DNA of 64,000 nt from Pirellulales bacterium (GTDB taxonomy: Bacteria > Planctomycetota > Planctomycetia > Pirellulales > JBFWUW01). The stretch spans positions 1-64,000 of the forward strand of contig JBFWUW010000037.1 in the NCBI GenBank assembly GCA_050247075.1, in the 5' to 3' direction. Position 1 is the first letter of the stretch. Each line of letters starts with the position of its first letter. The position numbers and the translations under genes are program-made. Below the pieces are notes generated by a model that was given only the letters and a program-made list of their open reading frames with translations, was not told the DNA's origin and ran no database searches. This document shows, piece after piece, positions 3-17,230 of the stretch.

Positions 3-110
3 ACCATGCTCAAGCGTCATCCCATCAAAGACAGCCTCCGCGGCAAGATGATCGGTTGTATGCTCAACACCAAGCTTCTTACGGAAGTTCTTGCCCTGCA
101 ACAAGATTGA
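3..110 (+). CDS. 3' end of an ORF truncated by the window edge (product unknown)
   Basis: Frame 3 reads ...TMLKRHPIKDSLRGKMIGCMLNTKLLTEVLALQQD and stops at TGA 108-110. There is no start inside the window and no family was recognised. Confidence 0.2.
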   Translation, partial: TMLKRHPIKDSLRGKMIGCMLNTKLLTEVLALQQD

Positions 111-864
111 TATGCGCTGACCGTGCCCTGCCGTCTACACGCACTCGGCAGAACGGCAAAGCATTGACGATTTCCAATAGTGAGACTCGAGATACACATA
201 TCGGTTCAGAAAGAATCTCTGATGAGGAGCTTAGCCGTGTGCCAGGATCGCGAGAACGCGGCTTTCGCGAGGCAAACAGCGCTAGCGGTTTCTTGGAGTA
301 CTGTTTGACAGCCGTAGCAGCGCTGTGGCCTAAGTTGCTTGAGTGGTTTCAATTGTTTCCAACGGCTACCACCTTTCCACGGCTGCGGCCAGTCTCTCCC
401 ATTGGCGGTCTCTATCCCTTCGACATTCCGAAAGGGGCCGGCGCGCATCATTCGGCGAATACATGACGACATCGCGCGCCAAGAAGCTGGTTCTGACAAT
501 CGCTGGCCATCGCGGGTATGTGTCTGGCCCACTGGCGGTGCCGGGCAGAATGAATCGAACATTCGATTTGCCCTTACCAGACAGCGCGGTCTGATTGGCG
601 GCTATTCGCTGGGTGTTGACCTTGAAACGATCGGTCGAATCGTGCGAGATGCCGCAGGCAGTGGCTGGTTCAGGGGGCCAAGCTTCGCTGGCGGCTTGAA
701 AGTCGTCTACCGCTTGCCGTGACTATCTGGCCAAACCTGACTATTACCCGACGCTGATCGCTAGAATCGTGGCGCTGCTGGCACGCACGCCACTTTGGCC
801 CTCGGGGCAATTTTCGCCAACGGCATGCTAACCACTAACTGCGACACTTCCGCAGGGCGTTCGA

Positions 865-11190: not shown

Positions 11191-12681
11191 TCAATCCGGT
11201 AGCACTACAAACGCCGCAAACCCCGGCTCCGTCACGGGCAGTTCCGCATTGGGCATGCCGACTGGCGGCGGAGGCGTGATGGGTTGCATCGGCAAGCTTA
11301 CCAACTCGCCAGAGTAGATCCCCTCGGCCAACGTGGGACCATAAAAGTCCTTGACGCTGACCACGCGGAACTTTTGGCCTTGTTCCAAGACACCCGCCAA
11401 ATCGACCTCCACCTTCGGCAAGAGTTGCGGGTTGATGACTGCGATGTTGGCCCGGCCCGGTTGATAGGCATTGGGCCGCACGAAGACACGGAGCTTATCG
11501 GGCGCGCCCTTGGTAAAAGTACTCTCGCCGTCTACGTCCATTTGGCTGCGCCAATCGTCGAAGCTCATTCCGCGGCTCTTGCCGTTCTCCACGGCGGCGC
11601 AATCGCCCCAGCGGCCATCGGTAAGGTAGTAGTCGTTGTGGTCCCATTTCAGCCCGCTGAGCAACAGGTCGCCAGCCCCCTCGAGAATCGCCACATTGGA
11701 ATGGGCAACGACGGTATTCCGGCTGACCGTCGCCTGGCGAAAGTCCCGCAGCACCAAGCTACCCTCGCAGTAATTGCCGGTGCAGACGATGTCCTCGTTG
11801 GACGGTGGTCCCCAGGGATACCCCAGCCGCATGCCGTGGTTCAGAACAACGTTGTCCCGAACGGATGTTTGGGCGACCGGGCAACCACCGCCCACCATAA
11901 TGCCCTGGCCGCCATCCCCCTTGGCAAGTGCGCCGTTTTCAAAGGCGAAATTGCCATCAATCTCAAACCCCTTCAGCGAGGCTTTCTCCGAACCGTAGGC
12001 ATGGATGCCATAGCCAAATTGGTGGAACACCACGTTATCGGCAATTCGCTTGACGCCGCGAGCGTTCTGGGCGTAGATCGCGTGGCCGTGGCCGCGGTCG
12101 GGTCCCTGCCAGCCGTTGTTGTAAATCAAGCAGCCAGATACCTCTCCTCCCTCTCCCTCGGACCAAAGGCCAAACCCGCTCCCCAGATCGTGGACGACCA
12201 GATTCACCACCTTGATGCGGTCGCCGCGGACATCGATATTGCCCCGGTGAATGTCCTCGGGCCAAGAGCCAGCAATTTTGGTCTCGCGCAGCGGGTGCAG
12301 GCAAGTGACCTCAAAGTCGCGGTAGATGGTGTCTGCGCCGCCCAAGAAGAACAGGGCGTTGTCGCGGTCGTCGCGCGGCTGGGCGTCGATGATGGCCCGT
12401 TCGCCGGATGCCCCACGCACCACGATCGGCGCATCGGGCCGACCGGCCAGGCGCGAGGTGTACCCGCCTTGGTAGGTCCCCTCGTGCAGCCAAATAGTGT
12501 CGCCTGGCCGCACCACGGAAGGCGGCGAGAGGGCTGTCGCCAGGTCCCACGGTTCGGCCGCCGTGCCCGCGCCGGCGGCCGAACCCGATGGTGAGACATG
12601 AAACTCCGCCGCCGCTGCCGGCGCGGCCAACAACAAGCAGAACCAGCCACAATGCCAAACAGCCGCACGCAGAGTACACAT
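11191..12681 (-). CDS. secreted right-handed parallel beta-helix repeat protein (pectate-lyase-fold)
   Basis: Signal peptide MCTLRAAVWHCGWFCLLLAAPAAAAE. Contains repetitive NxxG/GHG beta-helix-like segments (NNGWQGPDRGHGHAIYAQNARG, VVLNHGMRLG). Catalytic type not determinable. Confidence 0.55.
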   Translation of the reverse strand: MCTLRAAVWHCGWFCLLLAAPAAAAEFHVSPSGSAAGAGTAAEPWDLATALSPPSVVRPGDTIWLHEGTYQGGYTSRLAGRPDAPIVVRGASGERAIIDAQPRDDRDNALFFLGGADTIYRDFEVTCLHPLRETKIAGSWPEDIHRGNIDVRGDRIKVVNLVVHDLGSGFGLWSEGEGGEVSGCLIYNNGWQGPDRGHGHAIYAQNARGVKRIADNVVFHQFGYGIHAYGSEKASLKGFEIDGNFAFENGALAKGDGGQGIMVGGGCPVAQTSVRDNVVLNHGMRLGYPWGPPSNEDIVCTGNYCEGSLVLRDFRQATVSRNTVVAHSNVAILEGAGDLLLSGLKWDHNDYYLTDGRWGDCAAVENGKSRGMSFDDWRSQMDVDGESTFTKGAPDKLRVFVRPNAYQPGRANIAVINPQLLPKVEVDLAGVLEQGQKFRVVSVKDFYGPTLAEGIYSGELVSLPMQPITPPPPVGMPNAELPVTEPGFAAFVVLPD

Positions 12682-12770
12682 CGCGGATTTCCCAGGAAGA
12701 ACAATCGGAATGGCTTTCCAATTAGCTCTTACATGGGAATCCGCCCAGTGCGGCGTGTCAACAGAGCGGG

Positions 12771-14855
12771 CTATTCCTCGCCACTCTCGTCGCCTTCGTC
12801 CCCGTTGTTTTCGTCCTCTTCGTCTTCCTGGGCACTTTCACCTGCTTCTTCGTCGGAGTCCTCGCCACCGTCGCGGCGTTCGGCCAGTTTTGCCCGCAGC
12901 GATTCCAACTCTTCCCGTAGTTCGTTGCGTTCGTCGGACAGCCGTTCGGCCTGTTCCGACAATTCGTTGACGCGCTCCTCCAACCGCTCGGTTCGTTCGG
13001 TCACGCGCTGGTCGAGCTCCTCCAACATTTCGTGCCAGCGGTTTTCCAATTCTCGCCAACCGCGGCGCAGCTCGCGTTCCGACTGCCGTCGTTCGCGTTC
13101 GATGGCGCGCTCCTCGCGGGCGCGTTCTTTTTCCTCCAGGTGCGAGGCCAACTCATCGAGTTCCGCCTGCAATTCATCCCGCTTACGGGCCAATTCGTCG
13201 ATGGCTTCACTCTCCTCGCGATCGTCCGCTTCCTCTTCCTCGTCGGACTCTTCGTCCATCTCCTCTTCGTCCCCTTCATCGTCGTCGGATTCATCTTCCA
13301 TTGACTCGTCGTCCTCATCGTCCGAGTCCTCATCGTCCGAGTCATCGTCGTCCGAGTCATCGTCGTCAGTCTCTTCCTCGTCGTCTTCCTCGTCGCGGTC
13401 GCCGGGATAAGCAAAGTTGGCCAATCCCAGGTTCGCATTCTCTCGCTCCGGTCCCGCCGATAACCCCCAAGCGCCGGTCAACATGATCAGCGCCAAGCCG
13501 GCCAACGTGGCCGCTCCCAAGCGCCATTGCAGACCGACGTGCCGTTCCAACACCTGTTCTCGTTCCAGCAACATGGTCATTCTCCTGTAGAATTCCGTCG
13601 AAGTCCGAAACACACCTGACACACTCAATCCCGCCTGGGCAAACCTTCCGCGGCCGACAATCAACGACACCAGCTCGCGGGCATACGTCTCTTTGTCCGA
13701 CTGGCCCGCCGCCCAGTCGTCGGCCAAAAGTTCTCGGCAAAGGCGTGCCCGGCCCCGCAACAGCCAATACAAGGGGTTCCAAAACAGCAGCGGCAGCGCG
13801 ATGTTAAACAGCGCCTGGCCCCAGGCGTCGCGCTGGCGAATATGCCCCAGTTCATGCCGCAGCACATGGGCCAATTGCGAGCGCCGCTCAACCAGGCAGC
13901 AACTTCGCGGCAGCACAATTGTCGGCCGCCACAAGCCAAATGTCACCGGACGCGGACAATGGCCGGAAACCAACAACCGGGGCCGTGCTCCCTCCCCGCA
14001 CAATTCGTACAGCAACCGCTCCAGCCAGCGCGGCGGCGTGGCGGCACGGTGTATCATGCGCCACAAAATGCATTGGCCGAATGCCAGCCAGGCCAGACAC
14101 AGTCCGGTGCCCATTGCCAGTAACATGGGAAGTTGCAACAACAAGGCATGCGGTCTCTTCACGGGAATTTCATGCTTGATCTGTTCGGCCGGAATCACGT
14201 CATGCTGGCTTGAAGGCTCGGCCAATGGCTCAACGGGCGGCGCTATGCTTTTCGCCGGTCGGGGATGAACGAAGGGGCTGGCCGCCGAACGCAACGACGG
14301 TTTGTTTTTAGGAGACCTGGTGCGGATAACCGTCGACTTCGTTCGCGCCGCGGGACGTTTATCGCCAGCCGAGGCAACCTTGCGTTCGGATCGTAGCCGC
14401 GCATGGCCCGCGCGGGCCTGTCCTTGGGAGACGCGAACTTGTCGCTGCGGCAACTTCTTGACGAGCCGCACGGTGACGTTATCCGCGCCTCGTGTTTTCG
14501 GTGCCGCGGTACCGCGGGCCACCGTTCGCGAATGTGCAACTGGCACTTCTAGAGAAGTCGGCGCGGTGGGTTCGAACTCCAACATCGTTTCGGGCATGGC
14601 ACTCTCATGTAATTCCCCAACAGTGAAATCTAAATGTTGGCTGCGAGAGGCCGCCGGCAAGTATTGCCGCCACGGCCGCGACAGGGGGAGGCAAGCCAAG
14701 GCCAGCCAGGCCAGCGATAGGCCCACCGTCAATTCCGCGCAGCGCAGTTGCCGAATTGGGCTGGAACACAGCAGCAAGCATGCTGTTCCCGCCAGTAACG
14801 CAGCGGTCGTCCCCAACGCCAGCATGGCGGCATGTTCGGCAAGGAAGGCAATCAT
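12771..14855 (-). CDS. BlaR1/MecR1-type M56 family membrane metalloprotease (sensor-transducer-like) with basic loop insertion and poly-acidic coiled-coil C-terminal tail
   Basis: HEXXH motif in the BlaR1-like context VLRHELGHIRQRDAW and four predicted TM segments. A ~150 aa K/R-rich insertion sits between TMs. The C-terminal ~250 aa are D/E-rich (DEEDDEEETDDDDSDDDDSDDEDSDDEDDE...) with heptad-like ELxxELxxL segments. The gene overlaps the blaI-like stop by 4 nt. Confidence 0.8.
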   Translation of the reverse strand: MIAFLAEHAAMLALGTTAALLAGTACLLLCSSPIRQLRCAELTVGLSLAWLALACLPLSRPWRQYLPAASRSQHLDFTVGELHESAMPETMLEFEPTAPTSLEVPVAHSRTVARGTAAPKTRGADNVTVRLVKKLPQRQVRVSQGQARAGHARLRSERKVASAGDKRPAARTKSTVIRTRSPKNKPSLRSAASPFVHPRPAKSIAPPVEPLAEPSSQHDVIPAEQIKHEIPVKRPHALLLQLPMLLAMGTGLCLAWLAFGQCILWRMIHRAATPPRWLERLLYELCGEGARPRLLVSGHCPRPVTFGLWRPTIVLPRSCCLVERRSQLAHVLRHELGHIRQRDAWGQALFNIALPLLFWNPLYWLLRGRARLCRELLADDWAAGQSDKETYARELVSLIVGRGRFAQAGLSVSGVFRTSTEFYRRMTMLLEREQVLERHVGLQWRLGAATLAGLALIMLTGAWGLSAGPERENANLGLANFAYPGDRDEEDDEEETDDDDSDDDDSDDEDSDDEDDESMEDESDDDEGDEEEMDEESDEEEEADDREESEAIDELARKRDELQAELDELASHLEEKERAREERAIERERRQSERELRRGWRELENRWHEMLEELDQRVTERTERLEERVNELSEQAERLSDERNELREELESLRAKLAERRDGGEDSDEEAGESAQEDEEDENNGDEGDESGEE

Positions 14856-15283
14856 GGCCGGCGCCCCCCGGCGCCTGGTCCCGTCTTGCGTCGGACCTTC
14901 GACAACAGCTCATCGAGCTTGCGTAGTTCCTCCACCGTCGGTTGCCGCAACGACAAGGCACTCTGCACCAATTGGTCCATCGCGCCGTCAAACAGCCGTT
15001 CCATCAGGCCCGACACCATCTGCTGACTGGTGTCGCTACGGGGCTGGGTCGGCCGATAAATAAACGACCGCCCCTCCGTGCGATGCGTAACCAGCCCTTT
15101 TTCCTCCATCGTCCGCAGAAACGCCTGTACCGTGTTTTGCACAATCGCAGCCTGGTCCCGCAAATCCTCGTACACCTCGCGAACCGTGGCTTCGCCCCGG
15201 TCCCACAAGACCTTGAGGATTTCCAGTTCGCGATCGGTCGGTTCCGTTTGAGCCATGCTCTCCTCCTGAAATTCCCGCTCCAT
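14852..15283 (-). CDS. BlaI/MecI/CopY family transcriptional repressor
   Basis: 143 aa. Winged-helix N-terminus ELEILKVLWDRGEATVREVYEDL is typical of the penicillinase repressor family. The gene is translationally coupled (ATGA overlap) to the M56 gene. Confidence 0.85.
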   Translation of the reverse strand: MEREFQEESMAQTEPTDRELEILKVLWDRGEATVREVYEDLRDQAAIVQNTVQAFLRTMEEKGLVTHRTEGRSFIYRPTQPRSDTSQQMVSGLMERLFDGAMDQLVQSALSLRQPTVEELRKLDELLSKVRRKTGPGAGGRRP

Positions 15284-15443
15284 GCCCCTGTCGCTTAATA
15301 TGGTACACTTACCAAACTAAGCTTAATCATGTCAAGGAAATTCCTGGCGAATTCTTGGAAGGGGCCGTCAGCGGAGAAGCGATCAGCCGTTAGCTTTCTT
15401 AAGGCAGACGATTCGACGTTGGAAACGCCGCCTAGGGACAGCG

Positions 15444-16958
15444 CTATGGCTGGATTTCGCGAATGGAAACCTCGGCCGTGCCGGTGTTATCGGCCAACGC
15501 CGCGGGTGAATCGTTGATGCGCAGGTAGAGCGTGCCGTCATGGGTCGGCAACAACGTGCTGAAAAGGCCCACGTTATCGTATTGCAACAGGGCGCTGGTA
15601 ACGTTCGGATCAACTTCGTCCGGACGGACGGCGGCTTGCAATATGCCCAACGGCGAACCGCGAAAATAATGGATCGACACGCCCCCTGGCTCGCTCCACC
15701 AGGCCTGGGGCTGTTGTTTTAATTGATACCGCCCGCTGGCCTCCACGCGGTAAGCCTTGTTCCGTTCCAGATGAATGCCCGTACTTTGCCAACCGGCATC
15801 GGCCGCTACTCTGACCGTTGCCCCCTTGGCGGGCAGCGGTTGGCCGGCCTCAAACCGCACCGCCATCCGCTCAAAGTCGTAGCCATAGTCAATATTGGCG
15901 ACGAACACCTGCCATTCCTCCAGCAATTCGCCCCATTCGTCGCCGTAGGCTTCTTGCAGCAATTGGTTGAAATTGGACTGGCGGGCCTGGTGGAACATCT
16001 GGCGAAAGCGGTCGCGATAACGCGGGTGCCCGTCCAAAAACGCTCCGGCCCCCCACGACCACCCGTACGACTCGTTGACCAGATGTGCCCGCGGCCCCAG
16101 CGCCAGCACCTTGGGAAACGTCAGCCCTTGCCGCGCGGCGTAGGCGTCTTTGACCAGCTTGACCCGCCCCCACAGCGGTAATTCCTCGCGCGACTTGGGA
16201 AAATACCCGGTGGTCAATTGTCCGTCGGCCCATAAATGCGTGCCAAAATATTCGGCCATCCCTTCGTTGTACCAAGGCGGGGCCACGTCGCTGACGTGGG
16301 CAAACATGAAAGCGTGCGTCCCCTCGTGCAGCATTAAATGCCGCCGATAATAGGCATTGGGCTGCTCCAGCATCCAAAACTCACGGCCCCGCGTATAACC
16401 GGAGGGAAATTCGGGCAAGTCGTCGTCCCACAGCCCGCACAGCCAAAACCGCTGTTTATCCGCCGCCAGAAAGGCGGTCGCCCGCCAACCGCTGTCTTCG
16501 GTGATCTCAAAATACTTTTGCCATTGGGGGACAGCCGCATCGAACACGGCTGGCAATTCGTCCACATCGGGACCGGCAGGCAGATCAGTGAAGAGCGTTA
16601 AATACTGGCCCTTCAATTCGCGGATGCCTTGTTCGCTCAGCCGCTCCTTGTCGATGGGCCGCGTGGCAACCTGCGGCACGGGGGGCTTGATATTCCGCGA
16701 GGAGGCGTTCGGCCCGGCTCTGTCTGGGCCGTTTCCAATGGCATCAGCCAGCGGAGAATCGGGATCGACCAACGGCTTATCGACCCTTGGCTGGCGCGGG
16801 CGGACAGGCTTCTTGGGACGCGGTGCCGCTGTATCCCCACTCGCTGGGCCAACCGCGGACGGCTGGGGAGCGACCGTGGCGGGAGGCGCGGCATCCCCAC
16901 AACCGGCCACGATCACCACCACCCAGGCAGCCAGGCACGAAAGCCCCTTGGGCATCAT
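15444..16958 (-). CDS. lipoprotein with HExxH motif (putative zinc metallopeptidase-like, DUF1570-like)
   Basis: The internal start gives MMPKGLSCLAAWVVVIVAGCGD (lipobox VAGC). The motif MLHEGTHAFMF is an HExxH variant. Secreted and about 500 aa, immediately upstream of blaI on the same strand. Confidence 0.55.
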   Translation of the reverse strand: MMPKGLSCLAAWVVVIVAGCGDAAPPATVAPQPSAVGPASGDTAAPRPKKPVRPRQPRVDKPLVDPDSPLADAIGNGPDRAGPNASSRNIKPPVPQVATRPIDKERLSEQGIRELKGQYLTLFTDLPAGPDVDELPAVFDAAVPQWQKYFEITEDSGWRATAFLAADKQRFWLCGLWDDDLPEFPSGYTRGREFWMLEQPNAYYRRHLMLHEGTHAFMFAHVSDVAPPWYNEGMAEYFGTHLWADGQLTTGYFPKSREELPLWGRVKLVKDAYAARQGLTFPKVLALGPRAHLVNESYGWSWGAGAFLDGHPRYRDRFRQMFHQARQSNFNQLLQEAYGDEWGELLEEWQVFVANIDYGYDFERMAVRFEAGQPLPAKGATVRVAADAGWQSTGIHLERNKAYRVEASGRYQLKQQPQAWWSEPGGVSIHYFRGSPLGILQAAVRPDEVDPNVTSALLQYDNVGLFSTLLPTHDGTLYLRINDSPAALADNTGTAEVSIREIQP

Positions 16959-17230
16959 TGGTCGATCAAAAAAGAACTGCCGAGCCATAAGACCGCCGCA
17001 TCGACGAATGCACCCCAACCACCAGGCCGCATGATCCTTTTCATTCTAACCAGACCGATCTTTCCTTGGCGAGCATGGCGTTAGTTGCGGAAACCCAAAG
17101 CAAACCAAAGGAGCGGCATCAGGGTCGGGTTGCTCCAGAAAGGTCTGGCCCTGTTGACCACGTTGCGCAGGCGGCCAGAAAACGGACAGGACGAGTCGCG
17201 GCGAACGATTGCATTGGCTATCTTGTGGCC

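Follow-up and report, generated by a model that had tools for sequence, protein, structure and literature searches.

The closest described systems are the BlaR1/BlaI and MecR1/MecI pairs of S. aureus, in which an M56 metalloprotease is encoded next to a BlaI-type repressor. In BlaR1, the extracellular loop EL1 docks on the C-terminal domain, and it is the displacement of EL1 that provides the signal (PMC9834060). According to PMC13492132, a penicillin-binding sensor is present in only about 6% of some 15,000 M56 proteins, the commonest architecture is an undefined and often disordered tail, and the signal is known for almost none of the approximately 94% of BlaR-like proteases that lack a beta-lactam sensor. 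The assumption of the initial annotation that such a sensor normally follows the protease in this family has thus to be abandoned. The only precedent in the family for ion-dependent signalling is PetP of Synechocystis, which degrades the repressor PetR in response to copper (bioRxiv 10.1101/2020.07.31.226407).

Here, we have studied an M56 protein encoded in a 64-kb stretch of DNA from a Pirellulales bacterium (the window). This 694-residue protein is an M56 gluzincin of the BlaR1 type with intact catalytic motifs: Pfam Peptidase_M56 (PF05569) matches residues 225-429 with 64.8 bits (gathering cut-off 31), the motif RHELGHIRQRD occupies residues 333-343, and the residues H334, E335, H338, E375 and D379 are invariant among 55 homologues. 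The predicted fold has four transmembrane helices and a re-entrant protease core as in BlaR1, the best six Foldseek matches in the PDB are all S. aureus BlaR1, and the structure 8exr_A superposes with an rmsd of 3.6 A over 164 columns. The exact protein is on deposit as 'MAG: M56 family metallopeptidase [Pirellulales bacterium]'. Both the intact zinc site with its membrane core and the lack of a penicillin-binding sensor had been recognised in the initial annotation, and both hold: profile searches with the whole protein and with the tail alone gave no match to a transpeptidase domain (PF00905) and none to TonB_C (PF03544). With the NCBIfam model NF000326 (blaR1_generic), the protein reached 37 bits as compared to a cut-off of 400, and the protease part alone was matched. 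No beta-lactamase or PBP2a gene is located within about 10 kb of the M56 gene. [quoted passage not shown] The features of the locus are listed in the table.

Table. Features of the M56 locus, with positions in the window.
Feature	Position	Strand	Details
M56 (BlaR1-type) membrane metalloprotease gene	12771..14855	-	694 aa + stop, one uninterrupted ORF
TM1-TM2 helical hairpin, residues 2-55	14691..14852	-	hydropathy; AF2 helices 2-29 and 33-55, pLDDT >90
EL1-equivalent TM2-TM3 loop, residues 61-235	14151..14675	-	175 aa; AF2 pLDDT <50 at 74-220
Basic block of EL1, residues 117-205	14241..14507	-	89 aa, 26% K/R, net +20
TM3, cytoplasmic gluzincin domain with re-entrant helices, and TM4, residues 236-467	13455..14150	-	AF2 pLDDT >90
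HELGH zinc-binding/catalytic motif (H334, E335, H338)	13842..13856	-	aligns with BlaR1 H201EXXH
E375-L-L-A-D379, second gluzincin motif (EXXXD)	13719..13733	-	equivalent of BlaR1 E242XXXD
Acidic tract 1, residues 485-549	13209..13403	-	65 aa, 77% D/E, net -48; AF2 pLDDT <50
118-residue helix, residues 545-662	12870..13223	-	AF2 single helix, pLDDT ~90; 35% D/E, 23% K/R
Acidic tract 2, disordered C-terminus, residues 663-694	12774..12869	-	32 aa, 56% D/E, net -18
BlaI/MecI/CopY-family winged-helix repressor gene, 143 aa	14852..15283	-	Pfam Penicillinase_R, E 8.5e-27, 94 bits
Candidate BlaI-type operator TAAGCTTAGTTTGGTAAG, dyad CTTAG-N4-CTAAG	15308..15325	-	sequence conservation
TTGACA hexamer, candidate -35 box	15330..15335	-	upstream of the blaI-like gene, read from sequence

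The tail that follows TM4 (residues 468-694) consists of 227 amino acids, 48% of which are Asp or Glu, with a net charge of -79. An acidic tail had been described before, but as about 250 residues of nearly pure Asp/Glu, and neither this size nor this purity was found; the acidic and heptad sequences quoted at that time are all present exactly. The segment 12771-13430 corresponds in frame to residues 476-694 and the stop codon. The first acidic tract begins about 20 residues past TM4, is predicted to be disordered, and contains a 15-nt tandem repeat (13311-13367; 3.8 copies, 95%). Among close homologues it is between about 65 and about 120 residues long, and the second tract is variable as well. 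The long helix between the two tracts contains two heptad blocks (residues 552-579 and 587-660) with strong hydrophobic residues at 62-75% of the a and d positions, as compared to 0-10% elsewhere (occupancy 0.75 in the block 552-579), and the homologues P0002-P0006 have kept the sequence of both blocks. The charged heptad-repeat segment seen at first reading is thus genuine, and the helix is probably a dimeric coiled coil. A single alpha-helix of the ER/K type was considered and rejected: opposite charges in i/i+4 spacing occur 16 times as compared to 18.1 +/- 3.3 in shuffled sequences, so that salt bridges are not enriched, and there is a clear hydrophobic a/d seam. Acidic tracts are also no habit of this genome, and proteome-wide acidity was discarded as an explanation: the most acidic 40 residues of the M56 protein contain 82% Asp/Glu, those of the next-ranking open reading frame in the window 35%.

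The second unusual element is the loop between TM2 and TM3. A Lys/Arg-rich insertion of about 150 residues had been reported at this position; a basic segment is indeed present between the helices, but its length has to be corrected to the 89-residue block that is embedded in the much longer loop. This EL1 is the most basic among 102 mapped relatives. Both EL1 and the acidic tract are conserved in composition but not in sequence, as would be expected for polyelectrolyte interactions. By homology with BlaR1, EL1 and the tail are both very probably located in the periplasm: in a BlaR1-like core, which has four full transmembrane helices and its active site in the cytoplasm, the TM2-TM3 loop and whatever follows TM4 should face the side opposite the active site. 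Moreover, TM4 is flanked by positive charges before and negative charges after the helix, and the tails of the relatives bear exclusively periplasmic domains (TonB_C, LysM, HlyD-like, M23 and STN). A periplasmic tail is also supported by signal-peptidase-like motifs (AxA-Q), which are enriched behind TM4 in the relatives. A periplasmic loop with a net charge of +20 runs contrary to the positive-inside trend, from which long loops are usually exempt. If the tail and the loop are separated from the active site in this way, any inhibition must be allosteric, across the membrane, and this speaks against the direct electrostatic autoinhibition of the protease that had been put forward initially.

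The M56 gene is translationally coupled to the gene of a BlaI-type repressor: the stop codon of the repressor gene and the start codon of the M56 gene overlap by four nucleotides (ATGA), and homologous loci have kept both this overlap and the pairing of the two adjacent, co-oriented genes. The suggested pairing with BlaI is thus real; the NCBIfam models CopY_TcrY and BlaI match the repressor below their cut-offs. The operator-like box upstream of the repressor gene, TAAGCTTAGTTTGGTAAG, occurs once in the 64-kb window. It is found directly 5' of blaI in the homologous loci L004, L005 and L006 and in six more metagenome loci, and a consensus TAAGCTTAG-N4-STAAG precedes blaI in 10 loci; judged from the sequence, this box is a candidate autoregulatory operator. 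In L004 and L005, too, the motif TTGAC precedes the box, and the promoter scan called no canonical -10 region for blaI. A metagenome-wide scan for the box returned 120 loci; most are chance matches in AT-rich contigs, and six are the further ones in front of blaI. The remaining high-GC matches adjoin genes as unlike as those for an aldo/keto reductase, HlyD, OmpA, MarR, an integrase, DUF6069 and others, and no regulon could be derived from them. The other lineages of M56 proteins with acidic tails do not share the box. Within about 10 kb, the neighbouring genes encode an ECF sigma factor, a kinase, a protein of unknown function, a Pel9A-like beta-helix protein, a PSCyt/PSD protein, PutA and a GFO_IDH_MocA protein. 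There is no conserved downstream target gene: across the homologous loci blaI alone is kept and the other neighbours differ. The Pel9A-like gene starts 89 bp downstream, with no terminator called in between, and is specific to this genome.

How common is this architecture? A poly-acidic tract of this sort is present in 7 of 191 close M56 relatives, and the clade of the window protein is small and rare, accounting for 5 of the 150 nearest 50%-identity representatives. This clade is a derived form of a larger clade with coiled-coil tails, the conserved C-terminal module of which has been lost, and so the earlier suggestion that the protein might stand for a class of its own among the BlaR1 proteins of planctomycetes is not supported. 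The relatives have a mildly acidic linker after TM4 (median 18% Asp/Glu), and a heptad block within about 150 residues after TM4, such as the window protein has, is present in 98 of 164 relatives as compared to 8 of 164 shuffled sequences. A three-helix C-terminal module of about 120 residues ('LDLV.LA..Y.DA ... RK..LLR.IA'), weakly similar to the hairpins of efflux adaptors, is shared by 111 of 164 relatives and by P0012. It was not found in the window protein with jackhmmer, and a hhalign probability of 0.2% also led us to dismiss the idea that the coiled coil is a remnant of this module. A scan of genome representatives revealed distant relatives (at most 37% identity; Planctomycetota, Thermoguttaceae MAGs) and no close homologue.

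The charge pattern recurs. Of the nearest relatives, 102 were mapped, and the most basic EL1 loops among them belong to the six proteins with acidic tails: their best 60-residue stretch of EL1 carries +7 to +17, whereas for the 96 others the median is -1 and the 95th percentile +4. P0012, which combines an acidic tail with a basic EL1, forms a lineage of its own in the core tree, and neither feature is present in its sisters. In a wider census, 16 of 155 M56 proteins were acidic-tailed, distributed over at least four BlaI-paired lineages, and their acidic tract always starts 14-56 residues after TM4. A core-only profile search (A3) recovered nearly exclusively short proteins devoid of a tail, with not one of the known relatives among them, and did not contribute to this census. 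For the strongest basic block on the periplasmic side, the median charge is +9 in the acidic-tail proteins as compared to +5; these charge statistics are uncorrected for kinship and have about three to four independent lineages as their base. In the P0023 clade, a poly-Asp tract is directly followed by a Lys/Ala-rich tract, and the cultured bacterium Polyangium aurulentum encodes, adjoining blaI, a protein with an acid/basic/acid/coiled-coil/acid layout (WP_136925409.1). In P0132, an acidic tract is present but a strong basic block is missing, and this counts against charge pairing. Among the non-acidic relatives, the charges of loop and tail are weakly and positively correlated (Spearman +0.20), and loop-tail complementarity is therefore no family-wide rule. 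Taken together, the charge segregation in the acidic-tail M56 proteins, judged notable from the beginning, is recurrent and non-random. Their distinctive feature is the charge pattern itself, i. e. a juxtamembrane poly-acidic tract that is usually accompanied, on the same face of the membrane, by a block of unusually basic character.

Based on these observations, we propose, with a probability of roughly one in three (0.35), that the locus encodes a proteolysis switch of the BlaI/BlaR type that does not sense beta-lactams and in which an electrostatic pair of periplasmic loop and tail forms the sensing module. The BlaI-like repressor would bind the box in front of its own operon, and the activated four-helix M56 gluzincin would cleave the repressor in the cytoplasm, which would result in derepression of the operon and of a further regulon. 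The tail may serve as one part of the periplasmic sensor, with a disordered acidic tract, a coiled coil by which two protomers are probably joined, and the second acidic tract, and the long basic EL1 between TM2 and TM3 may serve as the other part. Electrostatic binding between the acidic tract and EL1 would hold TM3 and TM4 at rest, as a counterpart of the docking of EL1 in the BlaR1 sensor domain. If this pairing were screened or outcompeted, EL1 would be freed and the change relayed via TM3 to the protease. Candidate stimuli are multivalent cations, ionic strength, pH, polycations, and polyanionic polymers of the envelope or of substrates; the acidic-tailed protein may sense cations. We infer dimerisation, repressor cleavage, the contact between loop and tail, and the kind of signal. 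Further observations count against such a loop-tail switch: AF2 models both EL1 and the acidic tract as disordered, the net charge of EL1 is at odds with the positive-inside trend, and the acidic tract varies in length and contains an apparently recent tandem duplication of 15 nt, as neutral slippage of a linker would give as well. It is tempting to extend the proposal to the acidic-tailed M56 proteins in general. They might form a recurrent, hitherto undescribed BlaI/BlaR subclass with a self-contained polyelectrolyte switch as the sensor, in which a periplasmic poly-basic block (in EL1 or in an adjacent part of the tail) holds the juxtamembrane poly-Asp/Glu tract until multivalent cations, the ionic strength or polyions that compete for binding, for instance cationic peptides or anionic polysaccharides, set it free. 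We regard this extension as rather doubtful; if true, it would link an electrostatic cue to repressor proteolysis, as a charge-based analogue of the displacement of EL1 from the BlaR1 sensor by a beta-lactam.

A different reading of the same atypical BlaI/BlaR switch, which we consider possible and hold only tentatively, is that the acidic tracts are passive, non-sticky and self-repelling low-complexity linkers that were extended by replication slippage. The coiled coil would then be the real sensor, either by dimerising or by binding a periplasmic or outer-membrane partner, and the basic EL1 would be incidental or would balance the bulk charge. The 15-nt repeat and the variable length of the first tract fit this idea, as does the conservation of the two heptad blocks as the constant parts of the tail. 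In most relatives a heptad block comes after a linker that is only mildly acidic, so that the tail of the window protein resembles an exaggerated linker, and the similarity of their three-helix module to efflux adaptors hints at partner binding. However, this putative partner-binding module has been lost from the clade of the window protein, and the acidic tracts accompany unusually basic blocks. Moreover, at least four lineages have such tracts, each time at the same place next to the membrane, and a clade of at least 14 clusters has kept them throughout, and such recurrence and retention is hard to explain without selection. The coiled coil might also project the disordered acidic tail as a probe that monitors the periplasm or the cell wall, i. 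e. the peptidoglycan mesh, the periplasmic width or the contact to the outer membrane; a role of this kind has been proposed for the disordered extracytoplasmic region of the anti-sigma factor RsgI of B. subtilis and suggested for CenR of C. difficile. The reach would be long, with about 65 disordered residues and a helix of 118 residues (about 17 nm if straight, as calculated from the AF2 model), and there are precedents in the accessible parts of two sources: disordered extracytoplasmic regions that serve as sensors of cell-wall gaps (PMC9732909), and CenR, an M56 protein with a mostly disordered tail that governs a cell-envelope regulon (PMC13492132). The disordered regions of RsgI and CenR are, however, not reported as poly-acidic in these parts, no envelope genes are linked to the locus, at which the neighbours are not conserved, and both the extreme charge and the basic partner block would be left unexplained, so that we find this idea unlikely.

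The remaining explanations are even less probable. Signal peptidase sheds the BlaR1 sensor domain at Gly331/Gln332, just past the last transmembrane helix (PMC9834060), and a signal-peptidase-like site AxA-Q ([AVS]-x-A-[QE]) follows TM4 in 76 of 168 relatives (45%) as compared to 15% in control windows. A similar cut might release the tail as a soluble poly-acidic coiled-coil protein that acts in the periplasm as a cation buffer or as a chaperone-like polyanion, leaving a membrane stub as the regulated or inactivated form. Yet the window protein has a weak site alone (LSA|GP), the searches detected no free-standing tail homologues, and the shedding of BlaR1 was read as turnover rather than as a function of the freed domain (PMC9834060); a shed tail thus seems very unlikely to us. 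More improbable still is a cytoplasmic tail that mimics nucleic acids or other polyanions, as the initial annotation had envisaged for the nucleoid, or that plugs the protease or its basic surfaces directly. DNA-mimicking and autoinhibitory acidic tails are well known in eukaryotes, e. g. in histone chaperones (PMC10987829), and a basic loop in the cytoplasm would fit the positive-inside rule, but the BlaR1-like core with its cytoplasmic active site, the periplasmic domains of homologous tails and the charges around TM4 all place the tail and the loop on the opposite side. Finally, the acidic region might be an artefact, either a gene of its own in another frame or the result of a frameshift or of errors in assembly or sequencing. 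In favour of this, GA-rich low-complexity DNA with tandem repeats is error-prone, and a plus-strand open reading frame (12598..13410) overlaps the region. We regard the chance of an artefact as negligible: a single open frame extends from the conserved core through to the stop codon, three independent assemblies encode the identical protein, homologues from other samples have kept the tail architecture and the conserved coiled-coil blocks, and the Ser-rich product of the plus-strand frame is merely the mirror image of the acidic codons.

With the loop-tail switch, there is an explicit hypothesis for the acidic-tail proteins, i. e. charge pairing of two disordered periplasmic segments at the positions of the signalling contact of BlaR1. 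Its confirmation would make them a clear case, in bacteria, of two disordered polyelectrolytes that together work as a transmembrane sensor; its refutation would leave the locus as another atypical BlaIR pair with a low-complexity linker.

A comparison with the known systems places the locus among them. The closest relatives of the core (40-57% identity) are found in the coiled-coil-tailed M56 clade of the Planctomycetota that was defined in this analysis (P0007, P0008, P0010, P0013-P0022 and others). These proteins share the disordered EL1, the linker and the heptad block after TM4, and in L006 also the operator-like box 5' of blaI, whereas they differ by an only mildly acidic linker, a neutral or acidic EL1, and the frequent three-helix module. 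The atypical BlaIR systems, CenIR of C. difficile, PvmSR of P. aeruginosa and BlaIR of M. tuberculosis and M. abscessus, likewise pair an M56 protein without a transpeptidase domain with a BlaI-type repressor, and their C-terminal region is largely disordered without an identifiable domain (PMC13492132; bioRxiv 10.64898/2026.08.03.742534). In the accessible parts of these sources, however, the tails are shorter, there is no mention of poly-acidic or coiled-coil sequence in them or of a basic insertion in EL1, and the organisms and regulons are unrelated. PetR/PetP of Synechocystis shares the BlaI/CopY-type repressor and the co-transcribed M56 protease with overlapping genes (bioRxiv 10.1101/2020.07.31.226407). 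PetP has a TM2-TM3 loop of 14 residues and no C-terminal extracytoplasmic domain, and its copper sensing can therefore not make use of an acidic tail. RsgI of B. subtilis, as far as the accessible part of PMC9732909 describes it, is similarly a membrane-anchored regulator in a proteolytic pathway with a disordered extracytoplasmic region as the sensing element, but it is an anti-sigma factor that is cut by regulated intramembrane proteolysis, shares no homology, and is not reported to be poly-acidic. With S. aureus BlaR1 and MecR1 (structures 8EXP-8EXT), the window protein has in common the HEXXH...EXXXD gluzincin core, the four transmembrane and re-entrant helices and the fold, and with BlaR1/BlaI the neighbouring repressor gene. 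The differences concern the sensory part, since the penicillin-binding/transpeptidase sensor is replaced by acidic disordered sequence and a coiled coil and EL1, about 40 residues long in BlaR1, has become a 175-residue basic loop, and they extend to the surroundings, which are devoid of beta-lactamase and PBP2a genes. Both proteins nevertheless possess a TM2-TM3 loop and a C-terminal region that are extracytoplasmic, as judged by homology in the window protein, and in BlaR1 it is the interaction of the two that sets the signalling state.

The M56 gene of the window encodes a BlaR1-type protease and overlaps, by its start codon, the stop codon of a BlaI-type repressor gene. We are highly confident that the two form an atypical BlaI/BlaR regulated-proteolysis pair. 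The Pfam model Peptidase_M56 matches residues 225-429 with 64.8 bits (cut-off 31), and H334, E335, H338, E375 and D379 are invariant among 55 homologues. A phmmer search against PDB sequences matched the core to 8EXS and 8EXP, and the best six Foldseek matches in the PDB were all S. aureus BlaR1 (8exr_A, rmsd 3.6 Å over 164 columns); by sequence and predicted fold, the core was thus identified as BlaR1-like. The NCBIfam model of canonical BlaR1 covers the protease part only (37 bits, cut-off 400). The HMM search proposed in the initial annotation found no transpeptidase or penicillin-binding domain, either in the whole protein or in the separately scanned tail.

Coordinates of the locus, of the parts of its M56 protein (residues) and of features in homologous loci (L) and proteins (P)
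Feature	Position	Strand	Description
M56 gene	12771..14855	-	single ORF, 694 aa
BlaI/MecI/CopY-type repressor gene	14852..15283	-	143 aa; Penicillinase_R, E 8.5e-27
Box, window	15308-15325	-	
Box, homologous loci	L004 1106-1123; L005 2547-2564; L006 3274-3291		
Box, six further metagenome loci	L039, L044, L050, L081, L091, L111		
TM1, TM2	2-29, 33-55		helices, pLDDT > 90
EL1-equivalent loop	61-235		175 aa, pLDDT < 50
Basic block inside this loop	117-205		89 aa, 26% K/R, net +20
TM3, protease domain, TM4	236-467		pLDDT > 90
Acidic tract 1	485-549		65 aa, 77% D/E, net -48, disordered
Long helix	545-662		118 aa, continuous, pLDDT ~90
Acidic tract 2	663-694		32 aa, 56% D/E, net -18, disordered
P. 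aurulentum M56 gene	L141 4001-5899 (CP079217.1)		WP_136925409.1
Three-helix C-terminal module, example	P0007 638-750		model m676becfaa778

The interval flagged initially (12771-13430) is the 3' end of this ORF and encodes residues 476-694 and the stop codon. All sequences quoted in the initial annotation are present in the protein, and the charge pattern it described is real, but its extent was overstated: the supposed ~250 residues of nearly pure Asp/Glu are a tail in which acidic tracts of 65 and 32 aa flank the long helix, and the ~150-residue Lys/Arg-rich insertion is the 89-aa block. In the long helix, strong hydrophobic residues occupy 62-75% of the a/d positions as compared to 0-10% of the others, and opposite-charge i/i+4 pairs are not enriched over shuffled sequences; the helix is therefore a coiled coil, and an ER/K single helix is ruled out. 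The most acidic 40-aa window of the M56 protein contains 82% D/E, as compared to 35% in the ORF that ranks next, and the long ORFs of the window are charge-balanced. An artefact is effectively excluded: the region lies in a single ORF, the identical protein was recovered three times independently, from assemblies of two SRA runs and from the NCBI MAG GCA_050184935.1 (annotation 'M56 family metallopeptidase [Pirellulales bacterium]'), and the homologues P0002-P0006 from other samples share the layout, with two sequence-conserved coiled-coil blocks and acidic tracts of variable length. A Ser-rich plus-strand ORF (12598-13410, 270 aa) was rejected as a mirror translation of the Asp/Glu codons.

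BlaR1 has four full transmembrane helices and a re-entrant element, its HEXXH/EXXXD site is cytosolic, and its extracellular TM2-TM3 loop, EL1, docks in the C-terminal sensor domain (PMC9834060). By homology to BlaR1, the basic loop of the window protein and its acidic tail are both predicted to be periplasmic. Three independent observations support this placement of the tail: the tails of relatives carry periplasmic domains (TonB_C, LysM, HlyD-like, M23, STN), the flanks of TM4 in the window protein are positive ahead and negative behind, and a signal-peptidase-I-like motif, [AVS]-x-A-[QE], is found just past TM4 in 76 of 168 relatives (45%) as compared to 15% of control windows. With loop and tail placed in the periplasm, the initially suggested cytoplasmic roles, nucleoid mimicry and a direct plugging of the protease with its cytosolic active site, are effectively excluded. 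The motif parallels the site at which signal peptidase sheds the BlaR1 sensor (Gly331/Gln332; PMC9834060), and its enrichment suggests that the tails of M56 relatives may likewise be shed. A weak counterpart in the window protein is located at residues 462-468 ('GLSA|GP', about 13452-13472).

The acidic tails usually occur together with a basic block. Loop and tail were mapped in 102 relatives, and EL1 was most basic in the six of them with acidic tails: their best 60-aa window reached +7 to +17, whereas the median of the other 96 was -1 and their 95th percentile +4 (Mann-Whitney p = 2e-5, ignoring phylogeny). One of these lineages, P0012, lies outside the window clade (P0001-P0005) in the core tree, among sister proteins with neither acidic tract nor basic EL1. 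Searches with full-length acidic-tail queries revealed further lineages, both adjoining blaI genes. In the clade of P0023 and P0311-P0324, a near-pure poly-Asp tract after TM4 runs directly into a Lys/Ala/Arg-rich tract, followed by 5-8 tandem ~17-aa repeats of an unannotated unit ('FGPGSEFEKKMEAFGKEMESK') and, at the end of the tail, a coiled coil (e. g. P0311 residues ~395-643, L142). In Polyangium aurulentum, the tail consists of poly-D, the His-Arg-rich RRGPRHERRHRHH, poly-D, a coiled coil and a poly-D terminus. This is a cultured myxobacterium, and two DUF4139 genes trail its M56 gene. In a topology-based census of 155 M56 proteins, 16 had acidic tails, always starting 14-56 residues past TM4. 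Their strongest periplasmic basic 40-aa block had a median of +9, as compared to +5 in 134 others (p = 6e-7, ignoring phylogeny), and P0132 was the one exception to the pairing. Loop and tail charge were not anticorrelated among the non-acidic relatives (Spearman +0.20); hence only the poly-acidic forms show the pairing.

The box TAAGCTTAGTTTGGTAAG, with the dyad CTTAG-N4-CTAAG, is flanked by a TTGACA hexamer on one side and by the start of blaI on the other. In ten independent loci, the consensus TAAGCTTAG-N4-STAAG directly precedes a blaI-like gene, among them the distant L006 with its unrelated M56 tail. The box is a candidate operator of this BlaI subfamily, and its recurrent position would be in keeping with autoregulation. 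It is present in a single copy, without a second target in the 64-kb window, and a metagenome-wide look at the other boxed loci gave no coherent regulon. Both the P0023 clade and P. aurulentum lack the box, and this agrees with independent origins. The only conserved neighbour of the M56 gene is blaI; the downstream genes vary from locus to locus. In the window, a secreted right-handed beta-helix gene (Pel9A-like; 11191-12681, minus strand) begins 89 bp past the M56 stop codon. It is not conserved beside M56 homologues; no terminator was called in between, and the two genes may be co-transcribed. Upstream of blaI, a 524-aa ORF (15444-17018, minus strand) with a signal-anchor-like N-terminus and a 'HEGTH' motif has no Pfam match and may encode an unannotated metallopeptidase-like protein.

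An exhaustive search yielded 39,439 M56 relatives at E <= 1e-3 and 210 at E <= 1e-30; layouts were surveyed in the 150 best 50%-identity representatives and earlier matches. The usual order in the Planctomycetota clade is M56 core, mildly acidic linker (median 18% D/E), heptad block (98 of 164 relatives, as compared to 8 of 164 after shuffling), variable region and a conserved C-terminal module of ~120 aa and three helices ('LDLV.LA..Y.DA ... RK..LLR.IA'; 111 of 164). This module matches no Pfam family and weakly resembles the alpha-hairpins of the periplasmic efflux adaptors EmrA, HlyD, MacA and MexA (E 0.4-2). The monophyletic P0001-P0005 clade lacks it and has a hyper-acidic linker (65-69% D/E); P0012 has both acidic tract and module. 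In the wider clade, P0015 (885 aa, NCBI) is an unusual protease-adaptor fusion of an M56 core to HlyD-type membrane-fusion domains (PF25973, PF00364, PF25919, PF25917).

How might such a protein sense? In BlaR1, signalling starts when a beta-lactam displaces EL1 from the sensor domain (PMC9834060). By analogy to this docking, we tentatively propose, with a probability of about 0.35, an electrostatic latch: in the periplasm, the basic EL1 loop would pair with the acidic tract on a coiled-coil dimer, ion screening or polyion competition would free them, and the freed latch would switch on repressor cleavage. The main rival, which we consider only slightly less probable, regards the acidic tracts as inert spacers grown by slippage and assigns sensing to the coiled coil. 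Part of tract 1 did expand by recent slippage-type duplication, as seen from a 15-nt tandem repeat (13311-13367, 3.8 copies, 95% matches) that encodes (D-D-D/E-D-S) units; the basic partner recurs with the tracts across lineages. An envelope probe resembling RsgI or CenR is less likely, and so is a soluble tail acting after shedding. The latch makes acid-base pairing a concrete, testable hypothesis for the signal of at least some orphan BlaR-like proteases; the P. aurulentum protein could serve as an experimental model.

The initial annotation took a penicillin-binding sensor to be the norm. This premise does not hold: of roughly 15,000 M56 proteins surveyed, only ~6% contain a transpeptidase sensor, and a tail that is undefined and often disordered, like that of CenR, is the commonest architecture (PMC13492132). 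Further pairs without such a sensor are PvmSR and mycobacterial BlaIR, and the copper-dependent PetRP pair lacks any tail. In the literature searched, we found no description of a poly-acidic tract that recurs next to the membrane together with a basic partner. The window protein resembles CenR, PvmSR and mycobacterial BlaIR in being an M56 partner of a BlaI-type repressor without a transpeptidase sensor; this state is already known and ordinary for the family, and the new element is the recurring poly-acidic tract with its basic partner.
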